A stretch of 63,768 nucleotides of DNA, filler included, from Lenisia limosa (taxonomy: Eukaryota; Protista; Breviatea), in assembly GCA_001655205.1 (NCBI GenBank). It is 18 parts of 18 records of this genome, joined end to end, with 100 filler letters (N's around TTAATTAATTAA, not from the genome) between each part and the next. Parts side by side here need not be neighbours in the genome. Positions count along the whole stretch, not along the records: positions 33,281 to 35,576 come from LPNZ01002490.1; 17 more parts are not named here. One strand, written 5' to 3'. The position numbers were made by a program, and so were the translations under genes. Shown here one piece after another: positions 18,584 through 58,170 of this stretch (positions within the stretch are counted from its first letter, which is position 1; every line of letters starts with the position of its first letter). The notes under the pieces were generated by a model. The model was not told where the DNA came from and did no database searches. It saw nothing but the letters and a program-made list of their open reading frames with translations.

Positions 18584-19674
18584 AGTTCTACGCGATTAAT
18601 GATGAGATGTTGGCATGTGTTTACAATGATGACGACAGCACCTCCGACGATTCTGTTGAGAGTAATAGAACTTCTNNNNNNNNNNNNNNNNNNNNNNNNN
18701 NNNNNNNNNNNNNNNNNNNNNNNNNNNNNNNNNNNNNNNNNNNNNNNNNNNNNNNNNNNNNNNNNNNNNNNNNNNNNNNNNNNNNNNNNNNNNNNGCTCA
18801 TTTGGACGGGATTTGAGTGAATATCTGGGTATCTGGATATCTGGAAGGAGTATCTGGAGGTCTCCTTTTTCCCTGATCTGCAGTCCTCTGTCTTGACCTT
18901 AGACAATTAAAAAATCACATGTAAAAAATATGAAATATATGTATGAATGTAATAAATGTAATAACCCTGATTCTGCTAATCATCTTTATTTTCTTCCAAG
19001 AAATATAGTAACAAATGTAGCTTTTTTGATCCTGGCTATCATCTTCGGGTTCTTCGCCGTTTTCATATGTATTGTCCTTTGCCCCTTTTGCGTAGGTGCC
19101 TGTATTAAAAGTGAGGAGGGTGTTTCCTTTTTTATTCCAGTATTTCTGACAACAAATGATTGGGTGAATTAATATGACAGTATACTCCAATTTTAACCAG
19201 GTACCACCTCACATCTATGATGGTTTCACTTTGGTTTTAAAAAAGACTGTCTCGATAAATCCCCGAAAACTATCGATATTTTACCAGTCTTTTTGAAAGG
19301 CCTAATCTCTACACATAATACACTTTCCTTCTTTAGTATGATTCACTTCAGTCTCTCAAGTACTTCATTGGAATATGTAATACATCTTATTTACATGGCT
19401 GAGCTGTTATTACTAGTTCGATCTCACAATTTCCTTGTTTACAGTGCTGAGCTATTATTTTAAATGATTGGGTAAATTAATATTATATACTATAATCCAA
19501 TATCTCTTTTAACCGTGATGGTGTGGATGGCCTCGGCCTTATTTTTTATTTCTCATTGCTATACATATATATATTATTACGAGTTTGATCTAACAATTCC
19601 CTTTACAGGCAACCAGTCAAAAAAAGACCACCGGAGACGAAAGGCTAACATTCAGATGCAAAACACAAATCAGG
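18584..19674 (+). CDS. exons of an unidentified membrane protein (Cys-rich juxtamembrane, one TM helix)
   Basis: Poly-C acceptor at 18583, exon FYAINDEMLACVYNDDD; ORF 18930-19172 with hydrophobic VAFLILAIIFGFFAVFICIVLCPFCVGAC; further exon ~19609-19674. Confidence 0.35.
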
Positions 19675-20367: not shown

Positions 20368-20552
20368 CTGGGCTTTGTTTGTTTTTATCAACCCTCGTAA
20401 CAAAGTTGATTTTGGGCTTTTTATGGTTCATAAATTTTCCAATTCGTGTTTTTTGTTTCTTGTTTGGAGTTTCAGGTCATTCGGCTCGTGATTAGTAACT
20501 TTACGCCATTATTCTTCATCGAAATTATCTTCGTTTTACCTCCCCTCCCCAG
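20368..20552 (+). repeat. families D and E: intron-3'-end repeats that end in or abut the acceptor
   Basis: D: CTGGGCTTTGTTTG..TCAACCCTCGTGTGTTGTCAGCCAACAGAGTTGATTTTGGGCT..TGTTTCATAAATTTTCC; E: TTTGGAGTTTCAGATTATTCGGTTCGTGATTAGTACCTTTACGC..TTCTTCATCGAAATTTCCTTCGTTTTAC-(C)n-AG. At least 13 sites. Confidence 0.8.
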
Positions 20553-23789: not shown

Positions 23790-25599
23790 CACCTTCTCAT
23801 CCAGGGCCGCCATTTCAACCTCCAGTTGCCTCTTATCATCTCTCAAGGAGGCCTCAACTTCACGTCTGCCCTCAATCTCAGCATAGGCTTTCTTCAAGTC
23901 ATGTTCAAGGGTCTGGAGCTTGCTCTTCATCTGATCTAATGATCTGGCAGCTTCGGATTTGATCTTGGCGATTTCGTCGTCGGACTTCATTTTGCAGCTG
24001 CGAACGTCGGAAGCGGAAGCCAGCACTTCCGACCTAACCGAGTCCAGTTCGTTTTGAAGACGATCACAGTGATCTTTCCTCTGAGCCGCCTCTGTAGCCA
24101 TAACCGCCATTTTTGCATTGACTGCGGTGNNNNNNNNNNNNNNNNNNNNNNNNNNNNNNNNNNNNNNNNNNNNNNNNNNNNNNNNNNNNNNNNNNNNNNN
24201 NNNNNNNNNNNNNNNNNNNNNNNNNNNNNNNNNNNNNNNNNNNNNNNNNNNNNNNNNNNNNNNNNNNNNNNNNNNNNNNNNNNNNNNNNNNNNNNNNNNN
24301 NNNNNNNNNNNNNNNNNNNCTCCGTTGCTTTAGCTCCGATTCTAGCTAATTCGTCCTAGAAAGATTATGAGCTGTAAGGTAAATGATGGGTGAAGTAATA
24401 TTATACTATAATCCAATATCTCTTATAAGCGTGATGGTATGGACGGCTTTGGCCAGATACAACCTTCTCAATACATTGACCGGGATCTTGATCGAGTAAA
24501 TTCATGAGCAAATCGGTCAAGACTTATCCCAGTCACTGCATTAGGGTTATGGGTATATATGTACAATGACTGTGATAAGTCTTGACCAATTGCTATATGA
24601 ATTCTCAATAACAACCTTAAAACCTCCCCCCTCATTACAAAACTCACCTCCAAAGTAGCACGTGATCGATCAGCGGACGATTTGAAGTGGCCGAGGTCAG
24701 ACGCCAATGTGGTGGCGCGCGCGTCGGCTTCGGATCGCTTCTTCGCTTCTGCGGTGAGGTCTGCCTGGGCCTGGGAGGTGTATAAGGGGGGAGGAGTATT
24801 AATATACAGGGGGGATATTATACGGGTGTCTATTTCCTTATTAGGAAGGCTCACATTATCAAGTTTCTCCTTTAGACTGTCAATTTCCTTATTAAGAAGG
24901 GCCACAGTGCCAGACTCTTTTTGAAGGGACTGTTCTTTTTTGCTGGTTTGTGTGGCTTGCTGGAGAGGGGTAATTATGGGACCTTATCCCACTATCGTTC
25001 AACCTCCATTTTTTACCCCCCCCCCAACCTCATTCTTAGCCTCAGCTCGGGCAAGGGAAAAGCTCAAATCGTCACATCTAGCCATCACCTCGGCCAGTTG
25101 CTTCTCAGCCTCCACTGCCCGGCTTTCGGCGTCGGCTGCTCGAATATCCGCTTCGGATACTTCCGATGATAATCGGTCTGCGTCTTTTTGGACTAGTTGC
25201 AGCATCGATTCCAGGCTGTTTACCCTAGAGGGAGTAAAATTGGACAAAAGAGAGCCCAAAATCAACCCTGTTGGCTGACAACACACAAGGGTTGAAAACA
25301 ACAAAACAAACAAAGCCCTTTAGTTTTAGGGTTGTTGAAATACAACCAAATCCTGGGGGATACGATGGGAAAAGTTATAACATGATTCAAAGCTGTTCAC
25401 CCTGGGGGGGGGGGGGAATTNNNNNNNNNNNNNNNNNNNNNNNNNNNNNNNNNNNNNNNNNNNNNNNNNNNNNNNNNNNNNNNNNNNNNNNNNNNNNNNN
25501 NNNNNNNNNNNNNNNNNNNNNNNNNNNNNNNNNNNGGCTCTTTGAGGCAAAAGAGTCGATAGAGTGTCGTAACGAACGCAGCTCTTCCTCGAGTGCAAC
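23790..25599 (-). CDS. long coiled-coil protein (internal exons)
   Basis: Heptad-rich exons (VALEEELRSLRHSIDSF; LESMLQLVQKDADRLSSEVSEADIRAADAESRAVEAEKQLAEV; DHCDRLQNELDSVRSEV...LQTLEHDLKKAYAEIE) with GT-AG boundaries. Confidence 0.65.
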
Positions 25600-32669: not shown

Positions 32670-33280
32670 GTGAAGGGGGGTGTCTTGTTCCTAAAGTGGG
32701 GGTGAAAGCAGATGGGAATATCGATAAATAACGATATTTTACCAGCTTTAACTGACAGTGAAGCAAATTTGTTTTATTACAGGGGAAATTTTAAAACAAT
32801 GAGGGCTTTTCTAGGATTTGCTTCCACTTGACTGAGACACTCCCTCACCTGGCCTATAATGGTTCAATTAATATTCTATACTAAATCCAATATCTCTTAT
32901 AAGCGTGANNNNNNNNNNNNNNNNNNNNNNNNNNNNNNNNNNNNNNNNNNNNNNNNNNNNNNNNNNNNNNNNNNNNNNNNNNNNNNNNNNNNNNNNATGT
33001 AGGTTATGATATACTATAACTTATTGGTTCATTATAGTGAGATTATACTTACACCACAGCCACCACGCCATGCATCAAAGCACGTATCGCAAAGCTGGCC
33101 AACAAGAAGGGCGATAAACAGTGGGAGGGTCTAAAGCCTGGGGTGGGGGGGTGTAAAGCTGTGAGAAAGGGGGAGGGTAGNNNNNNNNNNNNNNNNNNNN
33201 NNNNNNNNNNNNNNNNNNNNNNNNTTAATTAATTAANNNNNNNNNNNNNNNNNNNNNNNNNNNNNNNNNNNNNNNNNNNN

Positions 33281-35441
33281 TAGCGATGACGTTGACAAAA
33301 GGACCCAAGTTGGGATTGGTGAAGCCAGCTTTGTAGATAATATTGCGTGTGGTCAACTTCTTGAGTTCGATAACCTCGGAAGCAATAGCCAGGTTAACCT
33401 TGGATGACAGAACCTGCTGTGTCAATACTATGTAGAAATGGGATTATATGAGGGCCATGAAACAAGAAATACTGCAACCTGCTGATAAACCTCAATTCAT
33501 TATATCCAATATAAAAGACCAACGTAATGTGTTCATGCTAAACATTTACCCCATATAATTAATCATCTTTCAATAAAGAGAACACCAAGAAAGCGACAAC
33601 TTTGCTTACAAAGGGAGAGAGCAGAATTGCATCCCGCACTTCCTGGACATTCGTATCGTCCTGCACACGTTTGCAAGCCTTGGTCAGAATCTCCGTCGTG
33701 ACACACTCGATGTACCACGCAATCATCTCGACAACCTGGGTGGTGAGGCAAGGGGGGGGGGGGTTTACAANNNNNNNNNNNNNNNNNNNNNNNNNNNNNN
33801 NNNNNNNNNNNNNNNNNNNNNNNNNNNNNNNNNNNNNNNNNNNNNNNNNNNNNNNNNNNNNNNNAAGCAAAAAAAAAGTATAGGTTGCGTTGAGTCTAAA
33901 AGTCATATACTAAGGTGAATCTGTTGTCACAAAAAATGAAATAAACCAAAAATTGGCAGCTACTACTCTGGTTTGTCAATAATGCACACCTACGTGCATT
34001 CCTTGAACATTCTACCAAAGAACCCATCTCCCAGCTTCGTCACTACTCTTCTATTACTCATCTTCAAGCTAACCTTCCTTGACCAAGCGCTGGACGGCCC
34101 ATCAAGAATGTCCTCCCACACATATTCGAGAATAGCGAAGGCGCTTTGGTTAGGAAGCACCTGTTCAGTGGACTTCTGCTGCCTCCTGGGGAAGATGTAA
34201 GACTATTAGAGTTCCACTTTCGATTAGAGACACGTAAAATATTGATTTGTATCAAATATTTATCAAGATTTATCCAGTACTCGGTCCTATTCGGCACTCT
34301 GGACCCTTCAAAATATCCCCTTGTGTCGTTCGGAGACCCTGGAGGGTACAGGGTACTTTTGAAACCGAAAGTAAATACCAGTATAAAAACATTAAAAAGC
34401 TGAACATCAGTGTTGTTAAAATAGTTTGAATGTATAAACAGAACAAAATAAATACTCCACTGAAATGAAAAGCCTCTCAAGTCTCACCTAATTTCCCGGA
34501 GTGCCTGCGTAATACTAGGGTTGTTTCGTCTTATTCTCTGAGGGCAAATGCAGGGCACAACACTGGCATTTGGCAAAACAAGGAAGTTGTTAACGAAGAA
34601 CATATCACAGAGCTCTGAATCGTACGCAATGGCAAGAAAGATGTGACGAGGCGTGATCCGGAGCTTCTTAGAATCCCGAGCCGCGTTTCCTGACAGCTCA
34701 AGGATTTCAGCGCAAACGTACTCCATGCCGGCAGCGAAAACGACTTCGGCCACCTTGTTCACACGTCCCGGGAAGAAGACTCTCATTTTTACAGGAGCAA
34801 ACTGAAGCCCAGCGCGCTGAGCTCTAGAAAGCCGGCATCGTCGCTGGAATCGCCCTTTTGATTTCGGCGGCGGAGCGCTGCTGCTGGAGTTGACGTATTT
34901 GGTCATGGCTTTAACCATCTCGGATTTGGCATGCCTCGTAATTTCACCTGTGACGTTATTAGAACATGAGACAAAAAACATCAAAGAAAAAGAATAGATA
35001 ACGTGAAAAGTAAGGAAGAAATAATGCCTTTCATACCTTTCCAAAATAAACCATTCTTGATGATTGTAGATAACTGTCAATAAAAGCACAATGAAGCACA
35101 AGAGAAGACTGTCCAACCACCATACCTCTGGTCATGCTGCAAAACGCTTCTATTGCTGATGATGGCCTCACAATCTATTCAATAAGATGCAATTTACGAG
35201 AAGATCTAAAACGAATACTTTAAGGGAATAATAATATGTCGCAGTGATAAATAAAAAATAAGGTTGTATCTAGCTGAAGCCGTCCACACCATCACGCCTA
35301 TAAGAGATATTGGATTATAGTATTAAATCCCACATTGCAGTCCAACTCAGCGGCAAAAGCGCCAGCCTTGTTGCCCAGGTAGTTCAGGAGCAGGTTCAAG
35401 CCTCTCATCGTCGCCTTGTTCATGGACATACCGGGGTGAAC
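33281..35441 (-). CDS. spliced, fused multi-histone protein H2B-H2A-H3-(H4?), truncated at both contig ends
   Basis: Exons 35441-35334, 35174-35126, 34947-34488, 34185-34074, 33735-33610 and 33413-33281 join in frame at GT-AG sites (phases 0,1,2,0,0). H2B: VHPGMSMNKATM...GEITRHAKSEMVKAMTKY. H2A: SRAQRAGLQF...MEYVCAEILELSGNAARDSKKLRITPRHIFLAIAYDSEL. H3: ITQALREIR|RQQKSTEQVL. H4-like (weak): LKKLTTRNIIYKAGF. Confidence 0.85.
35250..35330 (-). mobile_element. family C: ~90-bp non-TIR repeat with GGC-TTCG-GCC hairpin, Helentron/HINE-like
   Basis: Consensus AAATGATTGGGTGAATTAATATTATACTATAATCCAATATCTCTTATAAGCGTGATGGTGTGGACGGCTTCGGCCAGATACAACCTT(G/A)TTTT; copies ~19465, 21640 (x2), 24380, 32860, 35250, 40830, 50130, 60410. 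Confidence 0.7.
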
Positions 35442-35742
35442 CTTGGGTGGGGGGTGGGGGGTAAAACGAAGGAAATTTCAATGAAGGATAGTGGCGTAAA
35501 GGTACTAATCATGTAAAATTGGAAGAAACTAAAGCCCAAATCAACTCTATTGGCTGATAAAACACAAGTGTTGATANNNNNNNNNNNNNNNNNNNNNNNN
35601 NNNNNNNNNNNNNNNNNNNNTTAATTAATTAANNNNNNNNNNNNNNNNNNNNNNNNNNNNNNNNNNNNNNNNNNNNTTCCACCTCCTTATCTCTGTTAAA
35701 CTCCACCCCACCCCTGTTATGGTACATATCAACCTCTGTCAC

Positions 35743-47155: not shown

Positions 47156-47896
<741 letters not shown>

Positions 47897-49360
47897 NNNN
47901 NNNNNNNNNNNNNNNNNNNNNNNNNNNNNNNNNNNNNNNNTTAATTAATTAANNNNNNNNNNNNNNNNNNNNNNNNNNNNNNNNNNNNNNNNNNNNCATC
48001 TAGCCTCTCTTTGAAGAACATTTGAACAGGTGACCTCCCCATTGCGTCCCTAAAAAAAAAGGTAATAGCAAAAGTTGACTCAAAAAATGGGATTGAAAAA
48101 TATAAGCCAAGATAGCAGAAATGCTCTCATAGGCTATTAGATATATACAAATTATACCCTTGAGAAGGGAAGAAGGATCGAAGGGAGGACTAACATCCAG
48201 CTTACAGAGGGTGGAAAAACAGTGAAGAGAGTGTTTCTACTCAGAGCCCTTCTTTCCTACAATTTCCGTCTTAAATAATCTTCTTTCTACAATATACACA
48301 TAAATACAATAAAGATTTAACAAATGAAGAGAAAAGCAACAAAAAACAATTTTGGGGGATAAATTGTATTAGTACCACAGGAAGTGGAAAACTCGAGTTC
48401 CTGTGTACCTTCTCTTTATTTCTTTCCAAATTATGAAGATTATCAAATAAATATAATTATTATACCGGCCAAAAGTCCAAAATTCAGAAAAAAAAAGGGG
48501 TGATCAGTTTTTACTGATCTTGTCCAAAAATAGTAATCTTTAAAATTTGACGATGTCCCAAAAAAGGAACTTTTGATTGGTTATATTTCTTTTATATGTG
48601 ATTTTTGGAGAATATTAACCTTTCAAACATCTTTCTTGAAATTATATAAAAATAGAATACGGAGTTTTGAATAAAATACGGAGTTTAGGTTGCCTAGCAT
48701 ATGGGATTATTATCAATATGTGTGATATTTGTAAACATTTTTATTTTCCTTTTAATATGTAGAATATCACACATTAGCATAGAATATACATGTACATATG
48801 TGTCTATCCATGTAGTATATTATATATGTACATGTTGCTATATATTCGAGGAACATGTCCGGTAGTTTTGACCTTCACAGAATGCATACTATGATGACGA
48901 TGATGAAGAATATACCGAACCTGGGAGCCATGGCAACTCTTCTCCTGGATCACCTTGTTCAGTGGCCAGTCACTTGTCCGGACCGATGTCACCAATAGTT
49001 GCACCAATTCCTCCTTACTCCTACAATGAACCGATGATGCCGCAGCTAAATACACAAGATCTCACTCCCCAAAACACCCGAATCAAATTGAACCCATATG
49101 CTCCACCACCGAAGGTGAGATTTAACTTTAATCGCAGTGTAAAAGTCGTCCTATACAAATTGATGTTAAGAGTTTTTTTTTTNNNNNNNNNNNNNNNNNN
49201 NNNNNNNNNNNNNNNNNNNNNNNNNNTTAATTAATTAANNNNNNNNNNNNNNNNNNNNNNNNNNNNNNNNNNNNNNNNNNNNCCCCCCCCCCCCCCAGGT
49301 TCGTGATAAGTACCTTTACACCAATATCCTTCATCGAATTTCTTTCATTTCACCACCCAG

Positions 49361-56204: not shown

Positions 56205-58170
56205 AGTTAATTCTGACGGCCCCATCTCCGATGCAGCCGCTGCGGCGTCGGTTAATATCCCGAAGGGCCAAGGGTAGGGCGTTTTGAGCCGACGTTGTCA
56301 CCTCCGCAGGTATTATGAGCTTATGAAAACCGAGACAGTCCAGGCCAACAAGTCAGTTGTCGTAATCAAGGTCGGAAAATTTTGTTCTGTCCGTTTTACC
56401 GCTTTTCCTCGGATCATCTGCATCTTCAAACTGTTTTTGGAGTACCTGTGTACGTTTAAATTATGGCGAGCTTGGGGAATGTTGCCACTGAACGAACATC
56501 TTTTGAATTTGATAGAATTTTGGCCGTTTCCTTGTATTCTTTGCTTCTCTTTCATAATATGAGTGTCGGAAATATATTGGAACGGAACCCTTGACTGAAA
56601 TCTACTGATAGACATGTTTCCTCCTTTTTTCTGGATCTTCGAACATCTCGAACAGTGCTTTCACTCACAAACCTGCTGGCTTACTCCCCATTTTAGCTAA
56701 TTTACAACCTTACATATTCATTCCATTATTTTTGCGTAATTGAACTTCCTTTCTGACCTTCTAACATAAGCTTCTCTCTCTTACTTGTGGGTCCGTTTCA
56801 ATGCACAACCCGAATTCAGGGAATCGGAGCTGTTTACCGGATTTCTTCCTCCACCACCACCCTTCTCTCACAGTCATAGCATATGGATTTTTATTTTATT
56901 TTCGTAGTGTACTATTCACACCTCAGATATACTATTATATACACTGACCGGGATAAGTCTTGACCGATTTGGTTATTTATTTCGAAAAGTAAATAGGTCA
57001 AATCCTATCCCGGTCGGTGTATATATAAGAGTTTGTTTTTGTTATTATAATTCTTATCCAGTTCTTGCTTTTATTCTGATTGATTTTCGATTTCGTTTTT
57101 CTGAAGAGCAACTAAATGATATCAAATCACAACATTCTCGCCCCTTACCCGAGTAGCTTTACGCAAAACTTCTTCATCGGGGTTTTTTACTGCGCTTACG
57201 CGTGCAGAATTGATTGATTTTTTTTGTTTCCAAATTTTTCCAATTTTCCCCCCCAGGATGACGGAACTGTTATCGATGGACAGCCTGCACGCGACCTCCT
57301 CAACCTTGGCGCCACCACCGTCAAGCTCAAGACCACTGGTGGGGTTTTTTTTAGGACTGGCGGTTTTGTTTTAGTATTATTTTTAAAGGACAATTGATGG
57401 GGGGGTATAACGGTGAGATACTGGTCATACACCCAATTTTTTTTGTTTCATTGTAGGATCGGGTTTTTGTCTAGTTGTAGCGTGTTTATTATTGCTTGTT
57501 TTTTGTTGGTTTGGAGTTTCAGATTATTCGGTTCGTGATTAGTATCTTTTTAGGCCAATATTCCTCACCAAAATTTCCTTCGTTTTACACTTTCCCTAAC
57601 ATTCCAGATGTTCCTACTTGCTACAAGGCCTTCGTACAGTCTACAAGTGCCAACAGGAAGGTGGGTATCTGAAAATATTCACTGACCGGGATAAGTCTTG
57701 ACCGATTTGCGGTATGATTTTCCAAGGAAAATCGGTCAAAACTTATCCCGGTCACTGTAGATATACTCCCCTCAAAATCACCTCAAACCTCAATGTAAAA
57801 TTAATTACCCTTGTTTGTTTGGAGTTTCAGATTATTATGATTATGAGAACCTTTACGCAACTATTCATCGAAGTGTCCTTCGTTTTACCGAGCTTTGTTT
57901 GTTGTTACCAACTCTAGTGTGTTGTCAGCCAACAGTGAGTTGATTTGGTTTTTTTTGTATCATAAATTTTCTTTNNNNNNNNNNNNNNNNNNNNNNNNNN
58001 NNNNNNNNNNNNNNNNNNNNNNNNNNNNNNNNNNNNNNNNNNNNNNNNNNNNNNNNNNNNNNNNNNNNNNNNNNNNNNNNNNNNNNNNNNNNNNNNNNNN
58101 NNNNNNNNNNNNNNNNNNNNNNNNNNNNNNNNNNNNNNNNNGACCCAACACCAACGTGTATGAGGGGGGT
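56205..58170 (+). CDS. conserved uncharacterised domain usually found C-terminal to vWA domains
   Basis: Exons give PKGQG-YYELMKTETVQANKSVVVIK / DDGTVIDGQPARDLLNLG / YKAFVQSTSANRK, matching my recollection of the G.G(F/Y)YE.TK.E.IQ..K ... G..AR.LL.L ... FVQSTS.NRKL family. Confidence 0.5.
56942..57019. mobile_element. family B: 78-bp Tc1/mariner-type MITE
   Basis: ~28-bp TIR CAGTGACCGGGATAAGTCTTGACCGATTT (consensus) with TA on both sides; other copies 24475-24538, 25956-26021, 29600-29629, 37490-37534, 38590-38659, 57680-57757. Confidence 0.85.

Follow-up and report, generated by a model that had tools for sequence, protein, structure and literature searches.

The window analysed here, a 63,768-nucleotide (nt) stretch of the Lenisia limosa genome made of 18 spacer-joined contigs, carries at positions 33281-35576 (LPNZ01002490.1) a gene that unites at least three core histone folds, H2B, H2A and H3, in a single chain. 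The gene is real, transcribed, spliced and read in a single frame. Its splicing, frame, three folds and domain order are direct observations and form the firm part of the explanation given here, whereas the segment that follows H3 is on balance probably a degenerate H4. The gene is laid out like the histone repeats of giant viruses, yet it is not intronless as those viral genes are. With evenly balanced confidence for the proposal as a whole, the sequence features suggest a host-nuclear H2B-H2A-H3(-degenerate H4) gene, likely captured from a giant-virus-type repeat, whose product is predicted to mimic the nucleosome surface and not to serve bulk packaging.

Gene structure and transcript

The contig of the gene is 2296 nt long and contains an internal run of N (33771-33864); contigs next to each other in the window are not necessarily adjacent in the genome. 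Six exons, five complete introns and the end of a further intron are distributed over it as follows; r1 and r2 are repeats described below.

35442..35576, minus strand: 3' part of an additional upstream intron, closing with repeat r1 (35511-35442) and an AG acceptor; donor and 5' exon or exons off the contig
35334..35441, minus strand: exon, H2B loop 1 and helix 2 (RNA contig; H2B profile)
35175..35333, minus strand: intron 1, 159 nt, phase 0, with high-copy repeat r2 (about 35241-35323)
35126..35174, minus strand: exon of 49 nt, H2B loop 2 and helix 3 (RNA contig; H2B profile)
34948..35125, minus strand: intron 2, 178 nt, phase 1 (RNA contig)
34488..34947, minus strand: exon, H2B C-terminal helix, linker and full H2A fold with docking segment (PDB, Pfam, H2A profile), then an 18-residue link and the first half of the H3 N-terminal helix
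34186..34487, minus strand: intron 3, 302 nt, phase 2, with an in-frame TGA in its donor; splits the H3 N-terminal helix motif
34074..34185, minus strand: exon, remainder of the H3 N-terminal helix, H3 helix 1 and loop 1 (acidic, diverged)
33736..34073, minus strand: intron 4, 338 nt, phase 0, with a 94-N gap in which a DNA contig of a public run supplies 39 letters
33610..33735, minus strand: exon, H3-like helix 2, loop 2 and helix 3 (in-line alignment to the H3 part of the quadruplet profile)
33414..33609, minus strand: intron 5, 196 nt, phase 0 (RNA contig)
33281..33413, minus strand: exon truncated by the contig end, linker and probable degenerate H4 helix 1 and loop 1

Joined, the six exons give 988 nt with an open frame of 329 codons. 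All five introns are GT-AG, and their guanine-cytosine content (33-41%) lies below that of the exons (45-56%). Support from RNA and DNA consists of assembled contigs from two public runs of a single study; they attest that a sequence is present but give neither its level nor its strand. In the poly(A) metatranscriptome run, a 1231-nt contig (depth 55.7) joins all five junctions, with intron ends read as CT..AC, and shows no differing letter and no gap across the five exon pieces listed. The joints flanking the 49-nt exon are flagged 'between: not known', and RNA-contig coordinates 215 to 267 fit that exon only. RNA depth is zero in bins lying wholly within introns 2 to 5. The other run yields a 1980-nt contig (depth 30.1) that is unspliced and retains the introns; the window itself may derive from this run. 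Exon coordinates, GT-AG junctions and translation are thus exactly those proposed by the sequence-only reading. The same is true of its explanation for the apparent stop, a TGA at 34486-34484 that overlaps the donor of intron 3 and is spliced out in the RNA, and of its proposal that the H3 N-terminal helix motif is created by splicing, since intron 3 splits the motif and the junction is present in the RNA. RNA cover inside intron 3, expected of a TGA-terminated form, was not seen; because contigs lose rare forms, an intron-3-retaining transcript counts merely as not seen.

The RNA contig is longer than the DNA at both ends. At the 5' end it extends 107 nt further, diverging at 35441 next to an AG at 35443-35442, which implies a sixth intron before 35441; the 30 letters seen of this extension form an open frame and fit the end of H2B helix 1. 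At the 3' end it runs 136 nt past the DNA contig. The gene is therefore cut at both contig ends and has at least seven exons, and the whole protein is at most about 410 residues, provided that the RNA contig is complete.

Several trivial origins of such a fusion were considered. A prediction artefact is ruled out by the spliced RNA contig. A mis-annotated union of neighbouring histone genes was likewise rejected, as the five junctions occur together in one RNA contig and not only in a model. Nor does the gene follow the canonical pattern, in which each chain has a single fold and a start, stop and tail of its own, given that H2B, H2A and the start of H3 lie within one exon. In a database model of the locus (P0001, 312 residues), the TGA in the donor of intron 3 is translated as tryptophan and the frame continues into the intron, which is a gene-caller error. 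P0001 was called on a 12,309-nt contig, which would include the flanks of the gene; a 30-nt pattern aimed at the 3' end of the gene found no match in JGI metagenome contigs.

Histone folds and the C-terminal segment

Domain profiles were built from 57 H2B, 106 H2A, 72 H3 and 39 H4 domains excised from retrieved proteins, and scores were compared with 1000 shuffles each. Residues 1-72 reach 13.9 bits on the H2B profile (0/1000 shuffles as high) and residues 1-52 still 5.3 bits (1/1000). The H2A fold is the clearest, with 92.0 bits over residues 89-190 (0/1000), and residues 193-286 score 24.3 bits on H3 (0/1000), so that segments 34185-33610, read as H3 from sequence alone, do score as H3 when the N-terminal helix is included. 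The best PDB matches of the large exon are engineered single-chain H2B-H2A constructs (E 1e-18); the Pfam Histone family matches it with E 5.6e-05, below the curated cut-off, and a Pfam scan of five exons returned no family other than Histone. Because this exon spans from the H2B C-terminal helix to the H3 N-terminal helix, two of the domain joins are independent of splicing. A profile of 40 natural H2B-H2A-H3-H4 proteins (quadruplets) matches the protein in line, over residues 1-187 (130.7 bits) and 199-315 (28.1 bits), which reproduces the domain order of the viral repeats; the three folds H2B-H2A-H3 in one chain are also those of the viral triplets.

The third fold is less clear-cut. Without its N-terminal helix it scores 6.0 bits on H3 (3/1000 shuffles) and 10.5 bits on H2A (0/1000), and exon 33610..33735 taken alone also scores better on H2A. 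The H3 identity thus rests mainly on the helix split by intron 3, and it is further backed by the in-line alignment to the H3 domains of repeats. A C-terminal part derived from a duplicate of the protein's own H2A was rejected, with 508 of 1000 shuffles scoring as high.

Assignment of the last segment is the most delicate. For H4 speak its position and context. The quadruplet profile aligns residues 199-315 as one piece and places the YKAG motif of the last exon on the end of H4 helix 1, where it coincides with a YRAG in H4 helix 1 of the quadruplet P0212. When the last exon is shuffled and the result scored on the full quadruplet profile, the real order is equalled just once in 500 shuffles, the margin being less than 2 bits. 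The spacing between the H3 and H4 motifs is 106, against 102-134 in quadruplets (21/40 measurable). The further 136 nt of RNA are also about the length needed for the rest of an H4 fold. The sequence match to H4 is weak: 1.7 bits on the H4 profile with 54/1000 shuffles as high, 439/1000 on a linker-plus-H4 profile and 56/1000 on an H3-H4 profile. An ungapped H4 matrix gives -28.6 bits (64/5000 shuffles at fixed register, 678/5000 with 11 registers) and a matrix from quadruplets only gives 309/5000 and 2542/5000, respectively. The arginines of H4 helix 1 are mostly absent, and a comparison of the last exon with the PDB found no meaningful match.

These figures leave room for a triplet H2B-H2A-H3 with a non-H4 tail, possibly an H2A-like end, which would require a separate H4 and would fit either origin of the gene. 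Here the last exon scores higher on the H2A profile (5.3 bits, 5/1000) than on H4 and can be aligned to H2A helix 3 and the C-terminal helix, and triplets are the commonest repeat in the collected set (74/436), often with C-terminal extensions. The quadruplet-profile result, the placement of YKAG and the length of the RNA extension argue the other way, so that a triplet is a serious contender but the lesser one, and a degenerate H4 is somewhat favoured. A single-chain H2B-H2A-H3-(H4), as anticipated from sequence alone, consequently stands for the three folds that beat their shuffles; the H4 label, with fitting spacing and a negative matrix score, is not confirmed.

Nuclear setting, relatives and origin

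The introns of the gene carry repeats that recur in the window. Repeat r1, about 65 nt long with copies 80-90% alike, runs up to a C-rich stretch and an AG, and ends the upstream intron. Repeat r2, about 70 nt and high-copy, lies near the 5' end of intron 1 and at seven or more other places.

r1, minus strand: 35511-35442, 25664-25601
r1, plus strand: 20489-20550, 49304-49359, 57536-57588
r1, weaker copies: 57840-57889, 28852-28814
r2: 35333-35241 (minus strand), 24403-24466, 40892-40836, 19487-19578, 21773-21633 (two), 32878-32908, 50154-50107

Repeat r1 appears introner-like, seeming to supply the 3' ends of introns to genes that are not related; that it ends an intron is established at the histone gene and elsewhere presumed. 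Summed depth over r1 and r2 is 20,000-130,000, against 30 for unique DNA, and in the unspliced run (X1) 3060 contigs align to the 2.3-kb stretch, nearly all via these repeats. The histone contig has a depth of 30.1, compared with 19.6-27.9 for six other repeat-bearing contigs listed, depth not being copy number. Neither repeat has a copy in 117 viral loci. Since the intron repeats are common to other contigs of the window and absent from these viral loci, the gene most likely lies in the host nuclear genome, in agreement with the initial placement in a eukaryotic nucleus. It also lacks the uninterrupted frame of viral quadruplet genes: five introns are spliced and a sixth is implied.

An improbable alternative is that the gene is still viral, belonging to an intron-rich nuclear virus of mirusvirus type or to a decaying endogenous giant-virus element. 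According to the available part of PMC12768974, mirusviruses encode histones and many GT-AG introns, some of them introner-like, and endogenous nucleocytoviruses acquire introns; moreover, the 2296-nt contig bears no flanking gene. The introns measured here (159-338 nt) differ, however, from the mirusvirus peak near 80 nt given in that text, and bear repeats found on thousands of contigs of similar depth. The same part of PMC12768974 calls intron-bearing endogenous nucleocytovirus genes untranscribed; the present gene, by contrast, has an intact frame and a fully spliced RNA.

Relatives were sought among 436 histone-bearing proteins, obtained by a profile search of 1.84 billion representatives, scans of viral contigs and a search with P0212. 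Against the Lenisia protein the highest score is that of P0212 itself (132 bits over residues 1-315), a 550-residue H2B-H2A-H3-H4 protein with an unbroken frame on a 4418-nt Logan contig; the other 46 quadruplets score 85.9 +/- 9.6 bits. The second-best match, P0231, is an H2B-H2A-H3 triplet, and all of the top 15 matches are repeats. The predicted structure of P0212, computed with 38 quadruplet rows, shows four histone folds, with a predicted local distance difference test (pLDDT) score of 79.8 and a predicted template modelling (pTM) score of 0.76; folding from the single sequence gives a pLDDT of 36.6. The model matches H2B-H2A chimeras and the Melbournevirus doublet 7n8n_B (E 4e-7), the listed matches covering the H2B-H2A half. 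P0212 also begins with a K/S-rich tail of 110 residues, and no relative matching it over its full length exceeds about 37% identity. The same H2B-H2A-H3-H4 order occurs on the viral IMG/VR contigs L003 and L004, and for another four-histone protein, P0152, the nearest Atlas clusters are 98-100% viral (scores 0.85-0.86, leads only). A word-based search with the large exon returned no close orthologue of the Lenisia gene (23 matches among 302 longer and 48 among 62 similar-length candidates; best 85 bits), nor did a search of IMG/VR with this single exon, and the Atlas gave generic H2A clusters only (0.89-0.91). The window's six frames held no further histone match.

Among the collected proteins, a set of long multi-histone fusions (471-1371 amino acids; P0018, P0019, P0023, P0140, P0152, P0160, P0162, P0178, P0189, P0192, P0219) stands apart. 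Many carry acidic insertions and some a Ras/Roc-type GTPase, RING or R3H domain; they cluster in the large tree (Shimodaira-Hasegawa (SH) support 91, plus one doublet), and an MMETSP transcriptome is the source of one of them. These long acidic fusions may represent a kind of eukaryotic histone repeat that has not been described so far, in which case the present gene may not be the sole eukaryotic example.

Capture from a viral repeat is favoured by domain order, spacing, best matches and two signature residues, yet it is not proven. The signatures are a proline at H2A column 14, present in 53/68 triplet-type proteins, 9/40 quadruplets and 1/53 of the singlet bin, and an aromatic residue at H3 column 56 in helix 2 (50/68, 30/40 and 4/50, respectively); all five singlet-bin exceptions at the two columns are misbinned viral repeats. 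In trees on joined H2B, H2A and H3 columns, the protein falls on a long branch next to P0212 (173 rows, SH 89).

A number of observations weigh against capture. The signature columns were picked post hoc from the alignment, and the singlet H3 sample is mostly animal-type or virus-borne and poor in protists. In a quick tree of 67 chosen rows the placement beside P0212 is unresolved, and in a careful tree of 32 chosen rows the protein, again on a long branch, is sister to P0212 at only 76/57. The approximately unbiased (AU) test leaves unrejected a clade with animal histones (p 0.323) and one with the long acidic fusions (p 0.384). Identity per domain to P0212 hardly exceeds that to animal-type histones (19 vs 20 of 70, 46 vs 42 of 92, and 17 vs 16 of 67 positions), the 42/92 being the identity to fish H2A. 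Finally, P0212 was found neither in IMG/VR nor among JGI contigs, and is therefore taken to be viral because of its layout. With a long branch and weak support, trees cannot tell viral capture from host fusion.

Such a host event, in which the organism's own histone genes fused and diverged fast, would make the likeness to viral repeats convergent, and convergence on this order is conceivable because linker geometry permits few domain orders. It agrees with the AU results, with the equal identity to canonical histones and P0212, and with the existence of eukaryote-looking multi-histone fusions, one of them in the MMETSP transcriptome. The top matches, all of them repeats, the two repeat-type signature residues and the three trees that put the protein beside P0212, though weakly, speak against it and make it rather unlikely. 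Of the two origins first envisaged, a domesticated viral-type gene or an independent fusion, the order found is that of Nucleocytoviricota repeats, and the AU tests leave the choice unsettled.

Predicted role and comparison with known systems

Residue conservation differs between the two halves of the chain. The roles of the DNA-contact and acidic-patch columns are those known from nucleosome structures. Of the aligned basic columns, 9/13 are retained in H2A and 4/4 in the N-terminal helix of H3; H2A also retains 5/6 columns of the acidic patch, and the C-terminal helix of H2B has both of its acidic residues. The H3 fold has non-basic residues at four columns that 31, 36, 37 and 32 of 40 quadruplets fill with basic ones, and its net charge of -5 lies at the lower end of the quadruplet range (-5 to +9; 29/40). 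A histidine and an arginine near the end of H3 helix 2, found in 21/40 and 33/40 quadruplets and which we take to be part of the H3-H3 contact, are unmatched here in the profile alignment. At 18 residues the H2A-to-H3 link is shorter than in 63 of the 66 proteins measured, which have 27-67, the other three being pattern misfits; so short a link would tie the H3 helix directly to the H2A docking segment.

Loss of basic residues in the H3 fold, with the H2A face kept, favours a nucleosome mimic over a DNA-wrapping nucleosome. A possible course of events begins with the transfer of a viral repeat without introns into the host genome, where it would have acquired six or more introns of host type. 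The chain would self-fold to resemble half a nucleosome: H2B and H2A would form a pair, and the N-terminal helix of H3 would dock onto the tail of H2A via the very short link. Selection would have preserved the H2A face, including the acidic patch and the basic residues that contact DNA; residues for DNA contact and H3-H3 pairing would have been lost on the side of H3 (and H4). Such a protein may bind chromatin or DNA weakly and present its H2A-H2B surface to acidic-patch readers, chaperones or remodellers, acting as a decoy or as a specialised sub-nucleosomal mark or chromatin module. Not all residues comply with this picture: H2B retains only 4/10 basic columns, and the visible 329 residues are basic overall, with an isoelectric point of 9.6.

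The latter value lies inside the range of 40 quadruplets (8.2-10.5) and would suit a protein of the same origin that is a working nucleosome, two chains dimerising to a pseudo-octamer that wraps DNA chaperone-free, as viral quadruplets do. Order, spacing and expected length (at most about 410 residues) fit viral quadruplets, which according to the available part of PMC11222145 protect about 148 bp in E. coli. The loss of the four conserved basic H3 columns, the unmatched histidine and arginine of H3 helix 2 and the mostly missing H4 helix-1 arginines make this unlikely. The broader proposition is equally doubtful: a living eukaryote with a single-chain four-histone protein, either a tamed viral one or a relic of an early fused stage, that would form chaperone-free nucleosome-like particles on its own chromosomes and be one of several overlooked eukaryotic repeats. 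Thus, where the sequence-only reading allowed either a nucleosome-like dimer or a mimic, the residue losses favour the mimic, and the DNA-wrapping dimer has become less likely.

The closest known systems are the quadruplets of Nucleocytoviricota (L003, L004; P0212 is unplaced), which share the domain order, the single chain, the H3-to-H4 spacing, the two repeat-type residues and the lack of internal tails. The present gene differs in its at least six spliceosomal introns with host repeats and its most likely nuclear location, and its protein in the 18-residue link, the acidic H3 fold and the barely recognisable H4. Viral triplets, including P0231, share the first three folds in the same order; the Lenisia gene is spliced, its C-terminal part may be H4, and no adjoining H4 gene is visible on the 2.3-kb contig. 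One viral contig (L089:4020-6241) bears two tandem H2B-H2A-H3 triplets with an adjoining H4 in divergent orientation. The H2B-H2A and H4-H3 doublets of Marseilleviridae (Melbournevirus nucleosome, PDB 7n8n) offer a natural H2B-H2A single chain, whereas three or four folds per chain and a eukaryotic gene structure are found here. Among eukaryotes, the double-histone-fold proteins SOS1, ABTB2 and SPT3 likewise place several folds in one nuclear-encoded chain and, as presented in the available part of PMC13088155, reuse them for non-packaging roles, a functional analogy for a mimic; they have two folds with little core-histone likeness, usually accompanied by other domains, in contrast to the three or four folds close to core histones in the present chain. 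Predicted histone fusions in animal annotations are also spliced models uniting core histones. Those checked in PMC9145170 were judged, in the part of the review at hand, to result from mis-splicing between adjacent genes, each having a start and a stop of its own, unlike the present gene, whose exons are joined in RNA and whose H2B-H2A and H2A-H3 joins lie within one exon.

The 2022 review PMC9145170, in the passages available, lists viral H2B-H2A-H3-H4 quadruplets, e.g. Loki's Castle LCMAC101/102, and holds that no fused doublet, triplet or quadruplet is confirmed among eukaryotic histones; PMC10919886, in its accessible passages, states that current eukaryotes as a rule lack fused histones. 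Viral doublets, triplets and quadruplets (HQ types) are treated in PMC11222145, and particles of a triplet plus H4 in 10.1101/2024.12.06.627149 (journal form PMC13681535). In the passages found of 10.1101/2021.11.30.470311, doublets are attributed to viruses only. Searches of the open literature brought up no spliced chain of three or four histones from a eukaryote, although supplementary tables of histone architectures could list some.

Elsewhere in the window, which stems from an intron-rich eukaryote, 7 of 28 frames from other contigs have Pfam matches, to pieces of F-box, ankyrin and glycosyl-transferase-2 families. At 47274-47653 (plus strand) lie short exons of a glycosyl transferase family 2 gene, which we presume to resemble dolichol-phosphate mannose synthase. 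A large-subunit (LSU) rRNA-like fragment from 4364 to about 4950 (plus strand) is barely above the Rfam score and is set amid unrelated DNA; it may be a decayed rDNA copy.

Fused core histones have been regarded as characteristic of giant viruses and have served as a model for the pre-eukaryotic nucleosome. In Lenisia limosa, intron-bearing DNA and matching spliced poly(A) RNA place at least three core folds in one eukaryotic chain. The gene is thus a natural case for asking whether histone repeats pass from virus to host, and what role is left to a chain whose H2A-H2B face is intact but whose H3 part has lost its hold on DNA. It also bears on whether such repeats can form in present-day eukaryotes, which would weaken the case for viewing the viral ones as relics.

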